A stretch of 64,000 nt of DNA from an uncultured Devosia sp. (GCF_913055165.1 NZ_CAJXJS010000015.1:276-64275); one strand, 5' to 3'; shown: positions 7,476 through 63,894, counted from the first letter of the stretch. Notes: a model not told the origin generated them from the letters alone. Numbers and translations: made by a program.

Positions 7476-9185
7476 ATGCCAGCACGGATCTCTCGCGCCA
7501 CCTACGCCGATATGTACGGCCCCACCACCGGTGACCGCGTCCGCCTCGCCGATACCGAGCTCTTCATCGAGGTGGAGAGGGACTTCACCACCTATGGCGA
7601 GGAGGTCAAATTTGGTGGCGGCAAGGTCATCCGCGACGGCATGGGCCAATCCCAGCGCAGCCGTGCCGAAGGCGCCGTTGATACCGTCATTACCAATGCA
7701 CTGATCGTCGACCATACCGGCATCTACAAGGCCGACATCGGGCTTAAAAACGGCCTCATCGCCGGCATCGGCAAGGCCGGCAACCCCGATACCCAGCCCA
7801 ATATCGACATCATCATCGGCCCCTCGACCGAGGCTATTGCGGGCGAAGGCAAGATCATCACTGCCGGCGGCATGGACGCGCATATCCACTTCATCTGCCC
7901 CCAGCAGATCGAGGAAGCGCTGATGAGCGGCGTCACCACCATGCTCGGCGGCGGCACCGGCCCCGCTCATGGCACGCTCGCCACCACCTGCACGGGTGCC
8001 TGGCATATCGAGCGCATGATCGAAAGCTTCGACGCGTTCCCGATGAACCTGGCCCTGGCCGGCAAGGGCAATGCCGCCGTTGCCGCGCCGCTCGAAGAGA
8101 TGATCCTTTCCGGCGCCTCCTGCCTCAAGCTCCACGAGGATTGGGGCACCACGCCGGCCGCCATCGACAACTGCCTCTCGGTTGCCGACGCCTTCGACGT
8201 GCAGGTGATGATCCACACAGACACGCTCAATGAGAGCGGCTTTGTCGAGGACACGGTGGGCGCCTTCAAAGGTCGGACCATCCACGCCTTCCACACAGAA
8301 GGCGCCGGCGGTGGGCACGCCCCGGATATCCTGAAGGTCGCGGGCCTGCCCAATGTCATTCCCTCCTCGACCAACCCGACCCGGCCCTACACGGTCAACA
8401 CCATTGCCGAGCATCTCGACATGCTCATGGTCTGTCACCATCTCGACCAATCCATTCCAGAAGACGTGGCCTTCGCAGAATCGCGCATCCGCAAGGAGAC
8501 CATCGCGGCCGAGGACATTCTCCACGACATGGGCGCGCTGTCGGTCATTTCGTCCGACAGCCAGGCCATGGGCCGCGTCGGCGAAGTGCTGATCCGCACC
8601 TGGCAGACGGCCGACAAGATGAAGCGCCAGCGCGGGCGCCTCCCGGAGGAAACCGGCGACAACGACAATTTCCGCGTCCGCCGCTATGTCGCCAAATATA
8701 CGATCAACCCCGCTATCGCCCATGGCATGAGCCAGCATATCGGTTCGGTCGAAGTGGGCAAGCGCGCCGATCTCGTGCTCTGGAACCCGGCCTTTTTCGG
8801 CGTGAAGCCGGAAATGGTGCTGCTTGGCGGCTCCATCGCCGCCGCGCCGATGGGTGACCCGAACGCCTCCATCCCGACCCCACAGCCCATGCATTACCGG
8901 CCCATGTTCGGCGCCTATGGCAAGCTGGTCAGCCGCTCCTCGGTGGTCTTCATTTCCCAAGCAGCCCACGACGCGGGTCTGCGCGGGCGCCTCGGCGTCG
9001 ACAAGCAATTGCTGCCGGTCAGCAATACCCGCTCCGGCATCGGCAAGGCCGCCATGAAGCTCAATACCGCCACGCCGAAAATCGACGTGCACCCGGAAAC
9101 CTACGAGGTCCGCGCCGATGGCGAATTGCTGACCTGCGAACCAGCTACGGTATTGCCCATGGCGCAACGCTATTTCATGTTCTGA
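7476..9185 (+). CDS. ureC: Urease alpha subunit
   Basis: Ni-ligand motifs [37 protein letters not shown] and SSDSQAMG are all present. Confidence 0.99.
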
Positions 9186-12948: not shown

Positions 12949-14945
12949 CCGGGCCGCACCAGCGCCACGACAGACCGTGGCGGCAGGGTTGCGGTGCCCT
13001 CAGTAAGCGGCACGTCGGAGCCGGGATCGGATTGGATGCCCAGCATCCACTCACCTTCCGGCAGGCGCGCCACCACCGGTTCGATCCGCCGGTTGAACCA
13101 GACGAGCACGTCGTCTTCCTTGTGGCGAAGATGCATGCCCAGCACCGAGGCGCCGCTCTCGTTCCAGTCGCCTTCGGTCATTTCCCGGCCATCGGGATGC
13201 AGCCAGACCACGTCGCGCACCTCGTTGCGGCCCTGGCCGGTCAACCAATGATCATGGCTGACCGCCGGATGCGCCTTGCGGAAGGCGTTGATTGCCGCCA
13301 CGAAATCGACCAATGCGCCGTCGGCGCTTTCCCAATCCACCCAGGTAATCTCATTGTCCTGGGCATAGGCATTATTGTTGCCCTGCTGGGTCCGATACAT
13401 CTCGTCGCCCTGCTGGATCAGTGGCGTGCCGCGTGACAGGAACAGGGTGGCCAGCAATGCCCTTACATCGCGCCGGCGCGCAGCGTTGATCGCTTCGTCC
13501 TCGGTCTCACCCTCCACGCCGCAATTCCAGGAGGAATTGTGATTGTGGCCATCGCGGTTATTCTCGCCGTTCGCCTCGTTATGCTTGTCGTGGTAGCTGA
13601 CGAGATCGCGCAGGGTGAAGCCATCATGCACCGCCAGCATATTGACGCCATTGCTCGGCTTGCGCCCGGAGACATCGAAGATTTCGGCCGACCCCGATAC
13701 CTTGCCGGCAAGCGCCCCGATCTTGCCGCTCTCGCCCTTCCAGAAGCCCCGGATTTCGTCGCGATAGGTGTCGTTGTGCTCGGCAAATTCCTTGCCGAAC
13801 TTGCCCAGGCCATAACCGCCCGGACCTGGATCCCAGGGTTCGGCCACCAGGATAGCCTTGCTCAAAACCGGGTCCGCCTTGATCTTTTTCAGCATCTCGG
13901 CTTCGGGGTCGAAACCGGGATTGCGTCCCAGCACCGTGGCGAGGTCAAAGCGAAAACCGGAAACGCCAAGCTCTTCCACGTAGTAGCGCAGGCTCTCGAT
14001 CACCAGCCGCTGCACCGCCGGGTGGTCGCAGCGCAGCGTATTGCCCGTGCCGGTGTCGTTCACGAGGTGCTTTTTGCCGTCCACCTCGACAAAGCGATAA
14101 TAGGTCTGCGGGTCCAGCCCCATCATGGAAAGGATCGGCCCCTGGCTGTCCCCTTCCCCGGTGTGGTTATAGACCACGTCCAGGATCACCGAGATGCCGG
14201 CTTTGCGATAGGCGTCGGTCATCACCCGCATCTCCTGCGGGCCGCGCGGCGCCAGCCGTGGGTCAACAGCAAAATAGGCCACCGGATTGTAGCCCCAGGC
14301 ATTGGTCAGCCCCAGGGCTGGCAGGTGCCCTTCATCGATCCATGCCGCCGTGGGCATCAATTGCACCGTGTCGACACCAAGATATTTGAAATGGTCGATC
14401 ACCCGGCGCGTCGTCAGCGCCGCCACGGTCCCGCGCAACGGTCCCTGCACGCTGGGATGCCGCATAGTGAAGCCACGCACATTGACCTCGTAATAGAGGC
14501 TCGGCGCCTTCTTGCGGGGATGCGCAGGCTCGTTGCCGCCTCCCGGCACGATGGCCTTGGGAACCAGTTCAGCAGTATCCACCGCATCCTCGCGCGGCAG
14601 CCGCAACCGTGGCGAACGTACAAACACCCGGTCCAGATGCCGGGCATAGGGATCGACCAATAGCTTATTGGGATCGAAGAAATAGCCTTGATCGGGGTCA
14701 TATCGGCCGTCGGCGCGCAGGCCATAGCGCGCTCCAGGGCCGACATTGGCGATCAGCCCGGCGTGAACATTGTCCTTGTGCACGTCCAGCTCGAACCGAT
14801 CGATCTCCTTGTCCTGCTCGTCGAACAGGCAGACCCAGATGGCGCTGGCGCTCTCGGAATAGACAGCAAAATTGACGCCCTCGGCACTCGCGACGGCGCC
14901 GAGTTGGTCCGTGCGCCCGGCATGGGGCACCAGTTCGGGTTTCAT
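12945..14945 (-). CDS. glgX: Glycogen debranching enzyme GlgX
   Basis: GH13: WGYNP, DVVYNHT, GFRFDLA, AEPWD, HDGFTLRDLVSY. Start taken at ATG 14945 (TTG 14951 is an alternative). Confidence 0.95.
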   Translation of the reverse strand: MKPELVPHAGRTDQLGAVASAEGVNFAVYSESASAIWVCLFDEQDKEIDRFELDVHKDNVHAGLIANVGPGARYGLRADGRYDPDQGYFFDPNKLLVDPYARHLDRVFVRSPRLRLPREDAVDTAELVPKAIVPGGGNEPAHPRKKAPSLYYEVNVRGFTMRHPSVQGPLRGTVAALTTRRVIDHFKYLGVDTVQLMPTAAWIDEGHLPALGLTNAWGYNPVAYFAVDPRLAPRGPQEMRVMTDAYRKAGISVILDVVYNHTGEGDSQGPILSMMGLDPQTYYRFVEVDGKKHLVNDTGTGNTLRCDHPAVQRLVIESLRYYVEELGVSGFRFDLATVLGRNPGFDPEAEMLKKIKADPVLSKAILVAEPWDPGPGGYGLGKFGKEFAEHNDTYRDEIRGFWKGESGKIGALAGKVSGSAEIFDVSGRKPSNGVNMLAVHDGFTLRDLVSYHDKHNEANGENNRDGHNHNSSWNCGVEGETEDEAINAARRRDVRALLATLFLSRGTPLIQQGDEMYRTQQGNNNAYAQDNEITWVDWESADGALVDFVAAINAFRKAHPAVSHDHWLTGQGRNEVRDVVWLHPDGREMTEGDWNESGASVLGMHLRHKEDDVLVWFNRRIEPVVARLPEGEWMLGIQSDPGSDVPLTEGTATLPPRSVVALVRPG

Positions 14946-56630: not shown

Positions 56631-57074
56631 TCAGGCAGATTCACGACGGGCAATTGAGGGCCAGAGTTGCCGCAGACCCTTGGGGAAATGATCGATGACC
56701 TTGGCTGTTTCGCCCGGGTCCAGCTTCTGCCAGACAACATCGAAAACGGCTTCAGCGACCATCTTGGGGTTGCGCTGGTAGTTGGGCGGCAGTTCACCGG
56801 CCAGCCGCTCGCAGAACTCCTCCACGGTGTTGTCGGGTGTGGGTTTTCCAGCCATCTTCCAGCCTTCGAAGAAGAGGCCTCGGACAATCATCGGCAATTG
56901 TGCCGACAGGTGTACAGCTGCTTCCGGAGGCAGGCGGTCGCGCAAGGCGTGCAGGGCAGCGCGCAGGGCCGGATAGGCCAGCCGTGAATCGTCCAGGTGC
57001 AGTTTCTCTGCCGTGGCCTTGAGCCAGATATTGCCGTCGTCAATGGCGGCGTCGAAGGGGGAATGTCTGGTCAT
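56631..57074 (-). CDS. DUF2267-domain protein
   Basis: WLK, ALRA.LHALRDRLP, QLPM.VRG.F.EGW, V..HFPK..R.LWP; GGAGG upstream of ATG 57074. Confidence 0.85.
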   Translation of the reverse strand: MTRHSPFDAAIDDGNIWLKATAEKLHLDDSRLAYPALRAALHALRDRLPPEAAVHLSAQLPMIVRGLFFEGWKMAGKPTPDNTVEEFCERLAGELPPNYQRNPKMVAEAVFDVVWQKLDPGETAKVIDHFPKGLRQLWPSIARRESA

Positions 57075-57147
57075 GCGTTCCTCCGTTGTGTTTCCTGATG
57101 GGCAGGATTGGCCCTTTGGATACTGGCCGCTATCGACCGTCGAAGCT

Positions 57148-57161
57148 TTGACCGGGGTCAT
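57148..57161. promoter_or_regulatory. FNR/FixK-type box 1 (for DUF2267)
   Basis: TTGAC-CGGG-GTCAT. Confidence 0.65.
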
Positions 57162-57213
57162 TTTCTGCATCGCTTCATGTGCCGCCCGACCGCCAGGCGC
57201 GTGCGGCCTGCGC

Positions 57214-57227
57214 TTGACAGAGGTCAA
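57214..57227. promoter_or_regulatory. FNR/FixK-type box 2 (for ftsH)
   Basis: TTGAC-AGAG-GTCAA. Confidence 0.78.
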
Positions 57228-57283
57228 TGCCGATCATTCCGCAGAGCCGTAACAAGGACGGGCTTGGGTCCTGGAGGTCGATA

Positions 57284-59134
57284 ATGAACAAGAGTCGGCA
57301 GTATACCCTCTGGTACTGGGTCGTTGCGTTGGCCCTGTTCGGCCTGTTCCAGTTATGGATGGGATATCGGTCAGTTGCGACGATCACCTACAGTGAGATG
57401 CTGGACTATCTCGACAGAGGCGTCATCGCCGAGGTGTCCATCACCGACACCGTGATCGAAGGACAGTTTCAGTCGCCCCAGAACGGCTACGACCACTTCA
57501 TAACGCGCCGCGCTGACCCCCAAATGGTCGAGCTGTTTACCAAAGCGGGCGTGCCGGTGCGCGGCGCAAGCGATGAGAACTGGCTGGGGACGCTGATTTC
57601 GTGGATCGCCCCTGCCCTCGTCCTCGTAGCCTTCTGGTGGTTCGCATTTCGGGGCATAGCCGAGCGCAGCGGCATCGGAGGGCTTACCGCCATCGGCAAG
57701 TCGGGCGCCCGCGTCTATGTTGAGAAGGATACCGGCGTGACTTTCGCCGACGTGGCCGGCATTGACGAGGCCAAGGCGGAACTGCTCGAGATCGTCTCCT
57801 TCCTCAAGGACAAGGAGAGATATGGCCGCCTCGGGGCACGCATCCCCAAGGGCGTATTGCTGGTCGGTCCACCCGGTACCGGAAAGACCCTCATGGCGAG
57901 AGCGGTCGCAGGCGAGGCCAATGTGCCGTTCTTTTCCATATCGGGATCGGAATTCGTCGAGATGTTCGTAGGCGTGGGTGCGGCCCGGGTTCGAGACCTT
58001 TTCGAACAGGCGCGGCAAGTGGCACCCTGCATCATCTTCATCGACGAGCTCGACGCGCTGGGACGTGCCCGTTCGCCATTCGGCAATCTCGGCGGACAGG
58101 ACGAGAAGGAGCAGACGCTCAACCAGTTGCTTTCGGAACTGGACGGCTTCGATCCGCGTGTCGGCATCGTGCTGCTGGCGGCGACAAACCGGCCGGAGAT
58201 TCTCGATCCGGCGCTGTTGCGGGCCGGCCGGTTTGACCGGCAAATCGCCATCGACCGACCCGACGTGCGGGGGCGCGCCGCCATTCTGGCGGTCCATATG
58301 CGCAAAGTGCGGTCGGTTCAGGGGCTGAAGCTCGACGACATTGCCGCTCTGACGCCGGGCTTCACTGGCGCCGATCTCGCCAATCTCGTCAATGAGGCGG
58401 CGATCGTCGCCACCCGTCGCGGTGCCGAGGCGGTGACCATGGACGATTTCACCCGCGCCGTGGAGCGGATCATTGCCGGCACCGAGCGCAATCGCCTGTT
58501 GCTGCCCAGCGAGCGCAGGCGCGTTGCCTATCACGAAATGGGGCACGCACTGGTGGCCGCGTCCATTCCCGGTACAGACCGGGTGCACAAGGTTTCCATC
58601 ATTCCACGCGCCATTGGGGCGCTGGGCTACACCATCCAGCGCCCCACCGATGACCGCTATGTCATCACATCAGCCGAGTTGCTCGATCGCATGGCCGTAC
58701 TCATGGGCGGACGGGCCGCCGAGCAAATCGCCCTGGGTGACGTGTCGACCGGCGCTGCGGACGATCTGGCCAAGGTCACAGACATTGCCCGCCAATACGT
58801 CGCCCGTTTCGGCATGCACGAGGCCACCGGCCAGGCCGTGCTGGAACAGGAAAGACAGGCCTATCTCAATGTGGTCGAGCCACGCTCGATGCGGGACTAT
58901 TCGGAGGAAACCGCGCGGGAACTGGACCTGGCTGTGCGCGGCCTGATCATCGATGCCTTCGGGCGCGCCAAGGCGATCCTGGCCGGCCGTCGCCCCGATC
59001 TCGACCGGGGTGCCGCGCTGCTGCTTGAGCGCGAGATTGTCACGCCCGACGATTTCCCGCCGCTCAGGCCCGCCGAGGTACAGGCAGAGAAGGCGGTCCC
59101 CTCCAGTGCGTCCCAGCGTGCGGCAGGCGCTTGA
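57284..59134 (+). CDS. ftsH: ATP-dependent zinc metalloprotease FtsH (probably an accessory copy)
   Basis: Two TM segments, [43 protein letters not shown] zinc motif; GGAGG upstream of ATG 57284. Confidence 0.95.
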
Positions 59135-59185
59135 CGCAAACAGGCAAGAAACCACCCCCCCGCGACATCATCCCGCCCTCTGCGA

Positions 59186-60808
59186 CTAGCCGGTGAGTTC
59201 CTCAGGCATGGCTATTTGCGGCCTTGGTTCGGGGACCTCCGTCATCGTCGCCTCGGTCAGGAGCAGCACGCCGGCGACGCTCACTGCGTTCTCCAGGGCG
59301 ATGCGCACGACCTTGGTGGGATCAATGATGCCGGTCTCGATCATATCCACATAAGTCTTGCGCCCCGCGTCAAAGCCGATATTGCCGCTGCCCTCGAGCA
59401 TGCGGGCAACAACAATGCCCCCGTCCGTCACCGAATTGTCAGCGATCTGCCGGGCGGGGGCCTCGATGGCGCGCCGCAGAATCTGGACGCCTGTATGTTC
59501 GTCGCCCTCGCAGAGCTTGGCCTCTTCATCCAGAGCACTGGCACAGCGCAGCAGGGCAAGGCCGCCACCAGGCACAATGCCCTCAGCCACAGCGGCCTTG
59601 GTGGCGCTGATCGCATCGTCCAGTGCCTCCTTGCGCGACTTCATCTCCGCTTCCGTCGGTGCACCAACGCGGATCACAGCGACGCCGCCGCTGAGTTTTC
59701 CCAGGCGTTCCTGAAGTTTTTCCCGGTCATAGTCGCTGGAGGTTCCGGCAATTTGCTGGCGTAATTGCTGGCGCCGCCCGTCTATCGCAGACTTCTTGCC
59801 CTTGCCGCCCACGATGGTGGTGGTGTCCTTGTCAACCAGAACGCGGGCGGCGTGACCAAGCTGGTCCGTGCCGACGTTCTCGAGCTTCATCCCCAGATCC
59901 TGCGAGATGACCTGACCGCCAGTCATAATCGCCAGGTCTTCCAGCATGGCCTTGCGCCGGTCGCCAAAGCCGGGCGCCTTGACCGCGCAGTTGTGAAAGG
60001 TGCCGCGGATATTGTTGACGATGAGCGTGGCCAGCGCTTCGCCTTCGACATCCTCGGCAATGACCAGCAGCGGTATGGCGGCCTTGGCGACGGTCTCAAG
60101 CAATGGCAACAGATCGGCGAGCACGGCAATCTTGCCGTCCACGATCAGAATTCCGGCATTCTCGAATTCGGTCTTCATGCGCTCGGGATCTGTGACGAAA
60201 TAGGGGGACAGGAACCCCCGGTCGAATTGCATTCCTTCCACGACGTCCAGCGAGGTCTCGGTGGTCTTGGCTTCCTCCACCGTTATGACCCCTTCTCCAC
60301 CGACCTTTTCCATGGCGTCGGCAACCAATGCGCCGACAGTGGGGTCGTTATGGGCAGAGATGGTCGCCACCTGCTCCTTTTCCTTGCGGCTCACCACCGG
60401 CCGCGAGATATCCTTGAGCACCGCCATGGCGCGCTTGAGCCCGCGGTCGAGCCCATGCTTGATTTCGATGGCGCTGGCGCCGGCCACCACGTTGCGGATG
60501 CCATCGGCGAAGATGGCGTGGGCGAGGATGGTAGACGTGCTGGTGCCATCGCCCACCATGTCCCCGGTACGCTCCGCCGCTTCTCGGAGCATGCGGGCAC
60601 CGAGGTTTTCTTCCGCGTCCTTGAGCTGGAACTCCTTGGCGATGGTCACACCATCATTGCAGACCAGTGGTGGGCCCCATTTGCGCTCGATCAGCACCGA
60701 TTTCGACCTTGGCCCCAGCGTCACCCTGATCGCGTCAGCCAGTTGCGTGGCACCGCGCAGGATTTTCTCCCGCGCCTCGGATCGAAACAGAACCTGCTTG
60801 TGCGGCAT
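59186..60808 (-). CDS. groEL: Chaperonin GroEL (accessory copy; no adjacent groES, no GGM tail)
   Basis: TLGPR, NDGVTIAKE, GDGTST, FDRG.LSPYF, KAPGFGDRRK, GIVPGGG. Confidence 0.95.
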   Translation of the reverse strand: MPHKQVLFRSEAREKILRGATQLADAIRVTLGPRSKSVLIERKWGPPLVCNDGVTIAKEFQLKDAEENLGARMLREAAERTGDMVGDGTSTSTILAHAIFADGIRNVVAGASAIEIKHGLDRGLKRAMAVLKDISRPVVSRKEKEQVATISAHNDPTVGALVADAMEKVGGEGVITVEEAKTTETSLDVVEGMQFDRGFLSPYFVTDPERMKTEFENAGILIVDGKIAVLADLLPLLETVAKAAIPLLVIAEDVEGEALATLIVNNIRGTFHNCAVKAPGFGDRRKAMLEDLAIMTGGQVISQDLGMKLENVGTDQLGHAARVLVDKDTTTIVGGKGKKSAIDGRRQQLRQQIAGTSSDYDREKLQERLGKLSGGVAVIRVGAPTEAEMKSRKEALDDAISATKAAVAEGIVPGGGLALLRCASALDEEAKLCEGDEHTGVQILRRAIEAPARQIADNSVTDGGIVVARMLEGSGNIGFDAGRKTYVDMIETGIIDPTKVVRIALENAVSVAGVLLLTEATMTEVPEPRPQIAMPEELTG

Positions 60809-60869
60809 GGCTGACCTCGTCGGACCGGATTGTCGACAAAGAGTCTAGGACTGGCACCCGCCGAGGGAA

Positions 60870-60883
60870 TTGATGGTGGTCAA
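60870..60883. promoter_or_regulatory. FNR/FixK-type box 3 (for groEL)
   Basis: TTGAT-GGTG-GTCAA. Confidence 0.75.
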
Positions 60884-61066
60884 GATTGTGACCGGCGGGA
60901 CGCCCGCCAAAATGCGCGGCGAGCGGCACGCTGACCAGGCAGGTGAACGCTCACGCGGAAAAGACCACAGCCGAAAAGGTCGCATGAGCAGCGCCGGCCG
61001 TGCAATCGCTGGAAGACAATTTGCGCTTCGACTGACCGGGCCCATCGGATCAACTCCTTCGAAATC

Positions 61067-61080
61067 TTGACGCCGGTCAA
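61067..61080. promoter_or_regulatory. FNR/FixK-type box 4 (for DUF883)
   Basis: TTGAC-GCCG-GTCAA. Confidence 0.78.
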
Positions 61081-61136
61081 ACCGCTCAGTCGGCATGTTT
61101 CTAGGCTCGCATCAGGTATCAAAGAGGACCGCCATC

Positions 61137-61460
61137 ATGACGAGCGCAAACAAAGCAATGCCCTACGATCAGGCTTTCAATGACCTTGTGAGCAAGGTCT
61201 CGCGTCTGCAAACCGACCTGTCCGACATTGCGGGGGGCCTAGGCGCCATTTCCGCACACGGCATGGAGGATCTTCGCGAGGAGACGACCGAACGCGCCTC
61301 TGCTCTTGCGAGAGAAAGTCAGCGCCTAGCCGAGCAGGCAAGGCGCAATGCTGCAAGCCTCGAAAGATCATTCGAGGATTCCCTGCGCCGTCAGCCCCTG
61401 CTGACCGTCGGGGTTGCCGCAGCGATCGGCTTCCTGCTTTCCTTGGCTGTGCGCAGGTAG
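61137..61460 (+). CDS. DUF883/ElaB/YqjD-family tail-anchored protein
   Basis: Amphipathic body ending in ..RRQPLLTVGVAAAIGFLLSLAVRR. Confidence 0.82.
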   Translation: MTSANKAMPYDQAFNDLVSKVSRLQTDLSDIAGGLGAISAHGMEDLREETTERASALARESQRLAEQARRNAASLERSFEDSLRRQPLLTVGVAAAIGFLLSLAVRR

Positions 61461-61622
61461 CCCGGCCCCAGCTCAAGCATTGGATGACACCGGCGCCCTG
61501 GACACTCTGGGGCGCCGGCATAGTCATGTAATTTCGCTCTAGGGCCGATAATCCACGGGCCCAGGCGCGGCCGATCCGAGACGTAGATCAGCACGACGAG
61601 TCGATGGTCTTGTGTTTCATTT

Positions 61623-61636
61623 TTGACGGTCGTCAA
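61623..61636. promoter_or_regulatory. FNR/FixK-type box 5 (for the E1 operon)
   Basis: TTGAC-GGTC-GTCAA. Confidence 0.78.
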
Positions 61637-61690
61637 GGCGGCCCCGAACCCCCCTCCCATAATTCATGGACAATTGCGGAGGACTTCAAA

Positions 61691-62902
61691 ATGCACCGTG
61701 AGACCGATACTGATTGCCAATCGTCCGAGCCGGGATTTTCGCCGGGACGGCGCACCTTCCTCAAGATTTCGGTCCTGGCCGGCGCGGCGGCGACAATCTC
61801 CAGCACTGTGGCCTATGCCGCTGGCGAAAGCGGGTTCTGGGCCAAGGATCTGGAAGATGAGCAACTCGTCGACATGTACCGACGCATCCTCCGCATCCGC
61901 TGGCACGAGCGGACCATGGCCGACAAGATGCTCACCGACCCCACCTATCGCGGCTACAACCACTTCTATGCCGGCCAGGAGGCGGTTGCGGTTGGCATCT
62001 GCTCGGCGCTGCGGAATGAAGGCGGCGTGGAGAAGGCGGACCTGGTCTATTCGACCCACCGCCCCACCGGTCACGCTATAGCCAAGGGCATCGATCTCAA
62101 GCGCATGTGCGCCGAGAACGACTTCCGGGCCACCGGCCTCAACAACGGCTATGCGGCGGAAATGCATATTTCGGACCCGACCATCGGGTTCATGGGGGCC
62201 GATGGCATGATCGGCCCGGGTCCGGTGATCGCAACAGGATCGGCCCTGGCTATCCAGGCCCGTGGGAGCGGCCAAGTGGTCGTCAACTTCGGTGGCGACG
62301 GGACCTATGCGACACCGCATTTCCATTCGGCGTTGAACAATTCCACGCTGCTCAAGCTGCCATTCATCTACGTGATCGAGAACAATCTCTACCACCAGTA
62401 CGCCCACTATTCCCTGTCCGTCCCGATGAAGGACATTGCCACGGCCGCAGAGCCCTATGGCATTCCGGGCATCGTGGTGGACGGCCAGGACGTGATGCAG
62501 GTCTACAATGCCGCCAAGATCGCGGTAGACAGGGCGCGGGCTGGTGAGGGCCCGACCCTGATCGAGGCCAAGACCTACCGCTATTACAACCACTGGGGCG
62601 CTCCCGGTGCCACCCCCGGCGAGCTTGGTGCCTTCGGCTACGATCCGCTGGCGATCTCCTCATTCCGGCCCGAGCGCGAACTGCGCGCCTGGATGCAACG
62701 CGATCCCGTCGACATCTCGCGCCGGATCCTCATCGATTGGGGCCTGCTCGATGACGCCGAAGCCGATGCCATCGAAACCGAAGTGAAAGCCGAGGTCACC
62801 GAGGCCTTTGCCTGGGCCGCCGAGCAGCCGCTCTGCAGGCCTGAGGACGGTCTCAAGCACGTATTCGTCGACGGCGAAGTTGAAGCCCGCCAGCTGGCGT
62901 GA
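61691..62902 (+). CDS. TPP-dependent dehydrogenase E1 alpha subunit (AcoA/PdhA-like) with a twin-arginine leader
   Basis: H.YAGQEAVAVG, STHRP.GH, TPP motif GDG-X26-NN, GEGPTLIEAKTYRY; N-terminal GRRTFLK...AYA. ATG 61691 preceded by GGAGGA. Confidence 0.9.
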   Translation: MHRETDTDCQSSEPGFSPGRRTFLKISVLAGAAATISSTVAYAAGESGFWAKDLEDEQLVDMYRRILRIRWHERTMADKMLTDPTYRGYNHFYAGQEAVAVGICSALRNEGGVEKADLVYSTHRPTGHAIAKGIDLKRMCAENDFRATGLNNGYAAEMHISDPTIGFMGADGMIGPGPVIATGSALAIQARGSGQVVVNFGGDGTYATPHFHSALNNSTLLKLPFIYVIENNLYHQYAHYSLSVPMKDIATAAEPYGIPGIVVDGQDVMQVYNAAKIAVDRARAGEGPTLIEAKTYRYYNHWGAPGATPGELGAFGYDPLAISSFRPERELRAWMQRDPVDISRRILIDWGLLDDAEADAIETEVKAEVTEAFAWAAEQPLCRPEDGLKHVFVDGEVEARQLA

Positions 62903-62922
62903 CCTAATCAGGAGTTCCGAAA

Positions 62923-63894
62923 ATGACTGAGAAAAGCTGGATGTACGCCGTCCTTGAGGCCGTGCAGTACGAGATGCGCCAGGATCCGAATATGCTCTGG
63001 CTGTTCGAGCTGACGGCTCCCGTGGCGTCCAATCCCGGGCTCCCGGTGATCAATCTGGAAACAGAATTCACCCGCAAGCGGGTCATCAACACCGGCATCG
63101 ATGAAATGTGGATGGTAGCAGCGACGCTGGGCGCCGGTCTCGCCGGCTCGAAAGCGGCCACCTATATTCCCTATCAGGGGGCGGCTATGCCCTTTCAAAT
63201 CATCCAGAACCATGCCGGCAAGTTGCGCCACATGACTGGTGGAGTGGCCTCCATGCCGGTGGTGTTCGTCATGGAGATGACAGGCCAGACCCCGGGCTTT
63301 GCCGGGCAACATTCCGACTACGAGATCGATTCCTATTACATGCACATCCCGGGCGTGAAGACGGTCGTGCCGTCCACCCCCTACGATGCCAAGGGCATGA
63401 TGGCGTCGGCGCTGCGCGACCCCAATCCTGTGGTCTTCCTTTATCCGGCGGGCCTGCGCGAACTCGTAGCGGAGGTGCCGGACGAGCAGTATGACGTGCC
63501 ACTCGACAAGGCGGCGGTGCTGGCAGAAGGCACCGATCTCACCATAGTGGGCTCGGGTGCCGGCATGCCCGAAATCCTCAAGGCGGCCGACGCGCTCAAA
63601 GCCGACGGGATGAGCGTGGAAGTCATCGACTTGCGGTCGCTCAAGCCCATGGACACCGAGACACTCGTGGCCTCGGTGGGCAAGACCAAGAAGCTGCTCG
63701 CGGTCGATCAAACCTACTACACGCTGGGCCCCGCGGCCGAAGTGGTGGCCCGCGTGGCGGAAAATGTCGACGGCGCCCGCTTCAAGCGCATCGCATTTCC
63801 GGACGCCCCGCCCCCCGCCTCTCCTGAAATGTTCCTCTGGATGCGGGTCAATGCCGACCACATCGCCAATGCGGCGCGCAAGCTGGTTGGTTAG
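62923..63894 (+). CDS. TPP-dependent dehydrogenase E1 beta subunit (AcoB/PdhB-like)
   Basis: NTGIDE, GQHSD, PG.KTVVPSTPYDAKG, D.NPVVF, EVIDLRSLKP.D, SV.KT. Confidence 0.9.
   Translation: MTEKSWMYAVLEAVQYEMRQDPNMLWLFELTAPVASNPGLPVINLETEFTRKRVINTGIDEMWMVAATLGAGLAGSKAATYIPYQGAAMPFQIIQNHAGKLRHMTGGVASMPVVFVMEMTGQTPGFAGQHSDYEIDSYYMHIPGVKTVVPSTPYDAKGMMASALRDPNPVVFLYPAGLRELVAEVPDEQYDVPLDKAAVLAEGTDLTIVGSGAGMPEILKAADALKADGMSVEVIDLRSLKPMDTETLVASVGKTKKLLAVDQTYYTLGPAAEVVARVAENVDGARFKRIAFPDAPPPASPEMFLWMRVNADHIANAARKLVG

Follow-up and report, generated by a model that had tools for sequence, protein, structure and literature searches.

In Bradyrhizobium, the regulator FixK2 recognizes the box TTGA/C-N6-T/GCAA, and the FixK2-dependent genes that bear this box include groEL5, hspC2 (an Hsp20 gene) and genes for a universal stress protein (USP), a DnaJ-domain protein and a cytochrome c (PMC9104804). 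The FixK core regulon predicted by Dufour, Kiley and Donohue (2010) contains fixL, fixJ, Hsp20, a CBS-domain protein and a class I cytochrome c (PMC2908626). In Burkholderia cenocepacia, low oxygen strongly induces the lxa locus, where an FNR-like motif recurs at many intergenic positions (Sass et al. 2013, PMC3721108). The genes of this locus encode USPs, Hsp20, phospholipid-binding (BON) proteins, an ATP-dependent Zn protease (130-fold induction), a cytochrome c, regulators of the CRP/Anr type and two-component systems. Here we analyze a 64,000-nucleotide stretch of DNA from an uncultured Devosia sp. (GCF_913055165.1, NZ_CAJXJS010000015.1:276-64275), hereafter the window, in which five palindromes resembling the sites of these regulators lie upstream of genes for a DUF2267 protein, a second FtsH, a second GroEL, a small DUF883-like protein and a thiamine pyrophosphate (TPP)-dependent E1 enzyme with a twin-arginine translocation (Tat) leader.

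The window corresponds to C15:276-64275 in a 3.87-Mb assembly of 123 contigs. We consider it likely that the five boxes are activator sites of the FixK/FNR type in class II position, and that they belong to an accessory low-oxygen stress regulon which has its other arm on contig C43, around a predicted fixL-fixJ-fixK set.

The resemblance to the FixLJ-FixK2 system of Bradyrhizobium diazoefficiens/japonicum lies in the components (the haem-PAS kinase FixL, FixJ and a FixK that lacks an Fe-S cluster), in the 14-bp palindromic box tens of nucleotides (nt) before start codons, and in targets such as an extra GroEL (groEL5), Hsp20 (hspC2), USP, CBS proteins and cytochrome c (PMC9104804, PMC6515984). 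Unlike FixK2, the C43 regulator lacks the redox-sensitive Cys183, with Pro aligned instead, and its recognition helix has the tail ILRR where FixK2 has ALSQ. The module here is also accessory in its genus, and no FtsH paralogue, DUF2267 or Tat-E1/cytochrome operon was found in the target sets of FixK2 in these two studies (PMC9104804, PMC6515984). The alphaproteobacterial FixK core regulon likewise shares the targets named above, with a motif common to FNR and DNR; however, no FtsH paralogue, orphan GroEL, DUF2267 or E1 is listed in it, and FixK was described mainly for Bradyrhizobiaceae (PMC2908626). The lxa locus is also clustered and in part accessory, and its FNR/Anr-like motif is TGA-N6-TCA (PMC3721108), but it is betaproteobacterial, its regulator is unproven and its other metabolic content is different (polyhydroxyalkanoate, alcohol dehydrogenase, ribonucleotide reductase). 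By this comparison, lxa is a functional analogue, not the same locus. Finally, the class II sites of E. coli FNR and R. sphaeroides FnrL (TTGAT-N4-ATCAA) agree with the boxes described here in half-site core, 14-bp spacing and the inferred position at -41.5. Those two proteins sense oxygen directly via an N-terminal [4Fe-4S] cluster, whereas the likeliest regulator here is without the cluster and predicted to be FixLJ-controlled, and positions 5 and 10 of the boxes here are mostly C and G.

Five boxes precede five transcription units

The pattern TTGAY-N4-GTCAW, searched on both strands of the 64-kb window, is found within 57-62 kb at 57148, 57214, 60870, 61067 and 61623 (positions are counted from the first letter of the window). 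Overall, 9 strand-hits were observed in the window compared to 0.33 expected from shuffles, and 0 of 100 shuffles reached 9. The sequence TTGA-N6-TCAA is exact in four of the five boxes; the remaining one (57148) has one deviation. A sixth match, at 14688, falls within an open reading frame (ORF) of 716 amino acids (aa) and is probably due to chance. Allowing one mismatch over the whole 64 kb yielded no more promoter-proximal sites: the matches are at chance level and mostly within ORFs. The box cluster is restricted to 57-62 kb of the window, where every box has a separate transcription unit, in the form of two divergent pairs plus the E1 operon.

An earlier note on this DNA had listed five such boxes. 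All of its coordinates were reproduced by the pattern search, its distances from box centres to start codons (61.5-80.5 nt) are the same as those obtained from the start codons read in the sequence, and its assignment of one box per transcription unit holds for the two divergent pairs plus the E1 operon. Its proposal to look for the motif in the rest of the island led, for the remaining window, to nothing beyond the chance-level one-mismatch matches. As for the genes, DUF2267, ftsH, groEL and E1 alpha were named correctly, whereas "DUF883" corresponds to a weak match below cut-off. The FixK2 box consensus that it quoted agrees with the published one (PMC9104804).

The first divergent pair consists of the DUF2267 gene and the ftsH paralogue. 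The DUF2267 gene (147 aa; 56631..57074, minus strand; Pfam PF10025, E 2e-29) has its start codon at 57074, 80.5 nt from the centre of its predicted FixK/FNR-type box (57148..57161, minus strand), which has the sequence TTGACCGGGGTCAT, reads ATGACCCCGGTCAA towards the gene and is the one with a deviation. On the other side, the exact palindrome TTGACAGAGGTCAA (57214..57227, plus strand) is the predicted box of the ftsH paralogue (616 aa; 57284..59134, plus strand), with its centre 63.5 nt from the ATG at 57284. In the second pair, the GroEL paralogue (540 aa; 59186..60808, minus strand) has no adjacent groES; its start at 60808 is 68.5 nt from the centre of a predicted box that is again an exact palindrome, TTGACCACCATCAA in the gene-ward direction (60870..60883, minus strand). 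Divergent to it is the gene for a small membrane-anchored protein (107 aa; 61137..61460, plus strand) whose weak matches to DUF883_C (E 0.003) and to the YqjD/ElaB-type model PRK10132 (E 2.7e-4) are both below cut-off. The predicted box of this gene, the exact palindrome TTGACGCCGGTCAA (61067..61080, plus strand), is centred 63.5 nt from the ATG at 61137. The fifth predicted box, the exact palindrome TTGACGGTCGTCAA (61623..61636, plus strand), precedes the Tat-E1 operon, with 61.5 nt between its centre and the ATG of E1 alpha at 61691; profile matches identify E1 alpha, which has the Tat-type leader, and E1 beta (61691..63894, plus strand) as a TPP-dependent enzyme. The FtsH and GroEL paralogues share 45% and 53% identity with the housekeeping FtsH (contig C96) and GroEL (contig C17), respectively, and judged from these alignments they are diverged second copies.

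Control of the GroEL paralogue (groEL2) by CIRCE was considered and rejected, the only CIRCE element of the genome being at C3:122978. This element (TTAGCACTC-N9-GAGTGCTAA) lies close to the end of contig C3, at a distance of ~100 nt, and the housekeeping groEL begins at the end of contig C17. The two contig ends may be neighbours.

Promoter geometry implies a class II position

We oriented 28 promoter-proximal boxes of this genome to their genes and scored the key bases of the hexamer T-A-N3-T downstream. A hexamer beginning 22-23 nt after the box has all three key bases in 10 of 28 cases and at least two of three in 26 of 28. There is no signal at other offsets, and 0 of 28 have three of three in the opposite orientation (background 0.4%). 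The same hexamer is found at 22-23 nt in E1 alpha promoters of other taxa (n=50), with three of three key bases in 21 and at least two of three in 49.

All five window units follow this arrangement. The predicted -10 elements are CAGTAT for DUF2267 (57120..57125, minus strand, 23 nt after the box, implied start ~57113), TAACAA for the ftsH paralogue, or ftsH2 (57250..57255, plus strand, 23 nt, ~57262), TAGACT for groEL2 (60842..60847, minus strand, 23 nt, ~60835), TAGGCT for the DUF883-like gene (61102..61107, plus strand, 22 nt, ~61115) and CATAAT for the Tat-E1 operon (61658..61663, plus strand, 22 nt, ~61671). Placing the hexamer at -12 to -7 puts the centre of the box at -41.5, which is the class II position of FNR and CRP. 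The inferred starts thus imply that the boxes are in class II position, centred at around -41.5. The implied 5' untranslated regions of the five units are 20-39 nt long, and the spacing from box to start codon is near-constant because of this.

By scan, the box region has no sigma-70 consensus promoter, and -10 elements are not enriched at a -35-type spacing (16-18 nt) from the TTGAC half. Accordingly, plain -35 elements are ruled out; the boxes stand in for a -35 element and are not themselves one.

A second box cluster contains fixL, fixJ and fixK

In the whole genome, perfect palindromes number 17 for TTGAC-N4-GTCAA and 7 for TTGAT-N4-ATCAA (hereafter C-type and T-type). Nearly all lie just 5' of genes, and the TTGAC-N4-GTCAA boxes are mostly found on the window block of C15 and on contig C43. 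The latter has 8 boxes, 6 of them perfect, within 17 kb of the region C43:1-18100, around genes for SDR, 184-aa ORF, USP-fixL-fixJ, fixK, BON, Pat-like, BON, CBS, PRS-like, 350-aa ORF, 96-aa ORF, Hsp20, DUF1153. Here the USP gene encodes a tandem USP and is followed by fixL and fixJ, the Pat-like product is an acetyl-CoA synthetase/GNAT protein, and PRS-like denotes a PRPP-synthetase-like protein.

For the C43 kinase, the closest solved structures are FixL haem domains (e.g. 1D06, E 4e-40), and the FixL kinase core matches with E 5e-85. The FixJ ORF is at C43:7045-7665. The C43 FixK has B. japonicum FixK2 as its best solved relative (4I2O, E 1e-33, compared to E 4e-12 for DNR); its recognition helix carries ETVSR, and a Cys cluster is absent. 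From these matches, the predicted components of a FixLJ-FixK cascade are present: a FixL with a haem-PAS domain, an adjacent FixJ, and a FixK without the FNR Cys cluster.

Other boxed genes of this genome are fixGH, ccoN, an aminotransferase I/II gene, which we suspect to be hemA, and genes for a flavodoxin, an EF-hand protein and glyoxalases.

Several further boxes deserve mention. The perfect palindrome at C43:4608 lies between USP-fixLJ and the divergent 184-aa ORF, whose second Met is 63.5 nt from the box centre; on that side, a CATGGT hexamer is found 22 nt from the box. A single palindrome may thus act here at the promoters on either side. For two perfect TTGAC-N4-GTCAA palindromes, no downstream gene is obvious: C22:40262 is at the 3' end of a 320-aa ORF of doubtful status and faces a convergent LacI gene, and C43:1633 is within a 138-aa ORF of low G+C content at third codon positions, ~75 nt before a small unannotated ATG. 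Possibly these two mark small genes or small RNAs. On the same contig as the C-type cluster of the window, ~4 kb beyond the window end, a classic T-type box, TTGATGCCGATCAA, is found at C15:68226 (8226-8239 of the extended locus), 124 nt 5' of a DUF302 gene that is followed by an IclR-type regulator.

The Tat-E1 operon encodes two cytochromes c

The E1 operon consists of Tat-leader E1 alpha, E1 beta and two paralogous genes of ~180 aa that lie past the window (C15:64513-65654). Each ~180-aa protein has a Sec-type signal and a single CxxCH, as in a monohaem cytochrome c. The E1 score is far under the NCBIfam cut-offs for pyruvate dehydrogenase E1 (220 compared to 394 bits). Based on these features, the unit looks like an uncharacterized periplasmic TPP enzyme that would donate electrons to cytochromes c. 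Identity over the four-gene unit is 67-85% across all of the 80 loci fetched, the titles of which name alpha-, beta- and gammaproteobacteria among others.

Boxes and gene linkage recur in other genomes

Of the 80 E1 alpha loci fetched, 77 were usable, and gene families were scored for exact boxes 20-260 nt upstream (chance ~0.02-0.03). An exact box is found 20-250 nt upstream of E1 alpha in 50 of the 77 loci, and 13 more have a box with one mismatch. For E1 beta, which served as an internal gene control, 0 of 76 have an exact upstream box. Exact boxes are also found upstream of homologues in other families: Hsp20 (10/12), BON (8/19), DUF2267 (9/22), PRS (4/6) and FtsH2 (2/4). Upstream of DUF2267 homologues, TTGAY-N4-RTCAA is present in Rhizobium, Ciceribacter, Maricaulis, Devosia, Hyphomonadaceae, Rhodobacteraceae and Dongiaceae.

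The gene neighbourhoods recur as well. Common neighbours of the E1 operon are Hsp20, BON, CBS, USP, PRS, GroEL2, FtsH2, DUF2267 and FixK-like genes. DUF2267 lies at most 6 kb from fixL-fixJ-fixK, CBS, Hsp20, BON or Pat genes in several lineages; for example, it is joined to fixLJK, CBS, Hsp20 or BON in loci of Maricaulis, Dongia, Devosia nitrariae and Cypionkella. One Dongiaceae contig has the order Hsp20-fixL-fixJ-fixK-ftsH2-box-DUF2267. In a Devosia metagenome-assembled genome, PRS, Hsp20, a FixK-like gene, the E1 operon, GroEL2 and USP form one cluster, which brings together C43-type and window-type genes. Judged by this physical linkage in other genomes, the genes of the window belong to the same module as fixLJK.

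The module is accessory and its boxes are biased towards C-type

None of the 24 sampled same-genus genomes has DUF2267 or the Tat-E1 gene, and the Tat-E1 unit is absent from 40 sampled relatives. Best matches point to Devosia as the probable genus. Orthologues of the C43 FixK (at least 64% identity) are found in 2 of the 24. A single-sequence search of genome contigs for close relatives of this FixK returned five distant loci only. The count of TTGAC-N4-GTCAA is 17 here compared to a median of 4 and a maximum of 9 in the 24 genomes, whereas the count of 7 for TTGAT-N4-ATCAA is ordinary for the genus. The maximum of 9 belongs to genome G021, which has a FixK orthologue; 4 of its 9 boxes are found in a syntenic Hsp20-USP-fixLJK-BON-Pat cluster, at equivalent places. 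Its region between fixK and the first BON gene (BON1) has a box with a TACCCT hexamer 21 nt after it. A MAFFT alignment of this intergenic region with that of our genome placed the boxes out of register because of indels and gave no usable footprint.

Half-sites within a box are not independent in this genome: 17 boxes are CC, 7 mixed and 6 TT, compared to 14, 13 and 3 expected (p = 0.012). The ratio of C-type to T-type half-sites is 23:3 in the two accessory clusters compared to 18:16 elsewhere (Fisher p = 0.005). These figures would fit an acquired FixK with co-acquired C-type boxes. A strict dialect, in which C at position 5 and G at position 10 are exclusive to one regulator, is opposed by several observations. 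The boxes of E1 alpha orthologues divide into CA 18, CG 13, TA 12 and TG 7 (n=50). C-type boxes also stand at genus-conserved promoters where there is no C43-type FixK; for example, the C-type box TTGACCTATGTCAA before the aminotransferase I/II gene recurs in genus members without the C43 FixK. Moreover, FNR, FixK and DNR are reported to have near-identical sites and overlapping regulons (PMC2908626). Among the fetched loci, the recognition-helix tail and the box type do not clearly covary, ILRR being restricted to close orthologues, and a Maricaulis FixK with the tail TITQ likewise goes with C-rich boxes. We regard C/G at positions 5/10 as a suggestive, not diagnostic, pointer to a dedicated regulator. 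The earlier note had expected from it a dedicated paralogue elsewhere on the island; an accessory FixK does lie amid C-type boxes, but it is on another contig (C43) and C5/G10 is not exclusive to it.

Counts of such motifs call for caution. Genome G039, from the same order, has 57 TTGAT-N4-ATCAA matches, and TTGATCGACATCAA / TTGATGTCGATCAA make up most among the matches listed. This points to a dispersed repeat containing an FNR-like palindrome.

Candidate regulators and alternative explanations

The genome encodes three CRP/FNR proteins with an E-x2-S-R recognition helix, on C43, C34 and C9. The FnrN-type protein on C9 has the Cys cluster and lies beside cydDCAB, which has a TTGAT-type box. 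The FixK-like protein on C34 is of a type found in most genus members and has as its neighbours hemN, a regulator of the OmpR type and another, second FixL-like kinase with PAS domain (C34:15858-20615), a set that we take to recall the hFixL-FxkR-FixK cascade of Rhizobium etli.

Some of our observations weigh against a single accessory regulon read by the C43 FixK. The E-T-V-S-R motif is common to the C43 FixK, the C34 FixK-like and the C9 FnrN-type protein, and the sequence singles out none of them as the binder. The C-type boxes at genus-conserved promoters without a C43-type FixK point the same way. C15 and C43 are separate contigs in the assembly. At the level of single units, the box at 57148 departs from the consensus at its outermost position, only 1 of 7 groEL2 orthologues has an exact upstream box, and the DUF883-like gene gained no support from orthologous promoters in the upstream-box scan.

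Alternatively, the five boxes could be genuine class II sites that are read mainly by the resident, genus-wide C9 FnrN-type and/or C34 FixK-like regulators, or by all three proteins. Besides the shared E-T-V-S-R motif, this is favoured by the near-identical FNR/FixK/DNR sites with overlapping regulons (PMC2908626), by the many TTGAC half-sites among R. sphaeroides FnrL sites from chromatin immunoprecipitation, and by the recurrence of TTGACCTATGTCAA in genus members without the C43 FixK. We nonetheless give this possibility a rather low probability: several lineages show physical linkage between the window families and fixLJ-fixK, within the genus an excess of TTGAC-N4-GTCAA goes together with the accessory FixK cluster, and C-type half-sites strongly predominate in the accessory clusters (23:3 vs 18:16, Fisher p = 0.005). 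Another possibility is a self-contained, horizontally mobile hypoxia-persistence module of FixLJ-FixK with USP, BON, CBS, Hsp20, FtsH2, GroEL2 and DUF2267, in which the C5/G10 dialect would be matched to the unusual ETVSR-ILRR helix and would partly insulate the module from the host FnrN/FixK, and the most conserved metabolic output would be an uncharacterized periplasmic TPP E1 enzyme passing electrons to two monohaem cytochromes c. Taken as a whole, we find this picture doubtful.

A signal other than oxygen limitation (NO, CO, redox or general stress), with DNR/NnrR-type or effector-binding CRP-family behaviour, seems improbable to us. Haem-PAS sensors are able to bind NO and CO, and the targets are general stress and proteostasis genes, not respiratory ones. 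DNR-type proteins also read similar boxes (PMC2908626), but the regulator is closest to FixK2 and not to DNR (E 1e-33 vs 4e-12), the adjacent kinase is a close FixL relative with a haem-PAS domain, the same box type stands before fixGH and ccoN, and in both Bradyrhizobium and Burkholderia low oxygen induces homologous sets of genes. More far-fetched still is that the motifs are chance palindromes, ordinary TTGACA-like -35 hexamers or small hairpin or repeat elements. While TTGAC is like the sigma-70 -35 consensus and the palindrome could form a 5-bp hairpin, ~0.3 matches are expected by chance, the -10-like element is 30 nt and not 16-18 nt from the TTGAC half, the palindromes have no following T-run, and across phyla the half-sites and their position are kept with a variable N4 spacer. 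Chance count, promoter geometry and orthologous boxes together effectively refute this last explanation.

Discussion

The earlier note had proposed one CRP/FNR-family, probably low-oxygen, regulon joining proteostasis genes with the Tat-E1 enzyme. The promoter geometry, the fixL-fixJ-fixK-centred regulon, the linkage in other genomes and the conserved boxes all support this proposal, and an accessory low-oxygen regulon of class II FixK/FNR-type sites remains our preferred explanation.

In such a regulon, low oxygen would leave FixL deoxygenated and active, and active FixL would phosphorylate FixJ. Phosphorylated FixJ would in turn induce fixK, and FixK would activate the boxed promoters, including that of USP-fixLJ, which would create positive feedback. 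At each window promoter, a dimeric FixK/FNR-type activator of the CRP family is predicted to bind the palindrome ~41.5 nt upstream of the start, where it would take the place of the -35 element and recruit RNA polymerase. The five units driven in this way would be DUF2267, the second FtsH, the GroES-less GroEL, the DUF883/YqjD-like gene, and Tat-E1 alpha/beta with the two cytochromes c. The resident FnrN-type and second FixK-type regulators may read the same boxes too.

The block would then have been acquired horizontally and represent one branch of a hypoxia regulon whose kind is well known, with a textbook regulatory principle. FtsH2, DUF2267 and the Tat-E1/cytochrome operon appear to be its less documented outputs. 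In a full-text literature search, the term DUF2267 turned up only for haloarchaeal genome annotation. Our analysis provides several poorly understood genes (those for DUF2267, the second FtsH, the orphan GroEL and the exported E1/cytochrome c enzyme) with a regulatory input, probably oxygen limitation via FixLJ-FixK; the E1/cytochrome c enzyme is almost always behind an FNR-type box. It also suggests that modules for hypoxia and stress are transferred between lineages as wholes, along with the regulator and the promoter boxes that belong to them.

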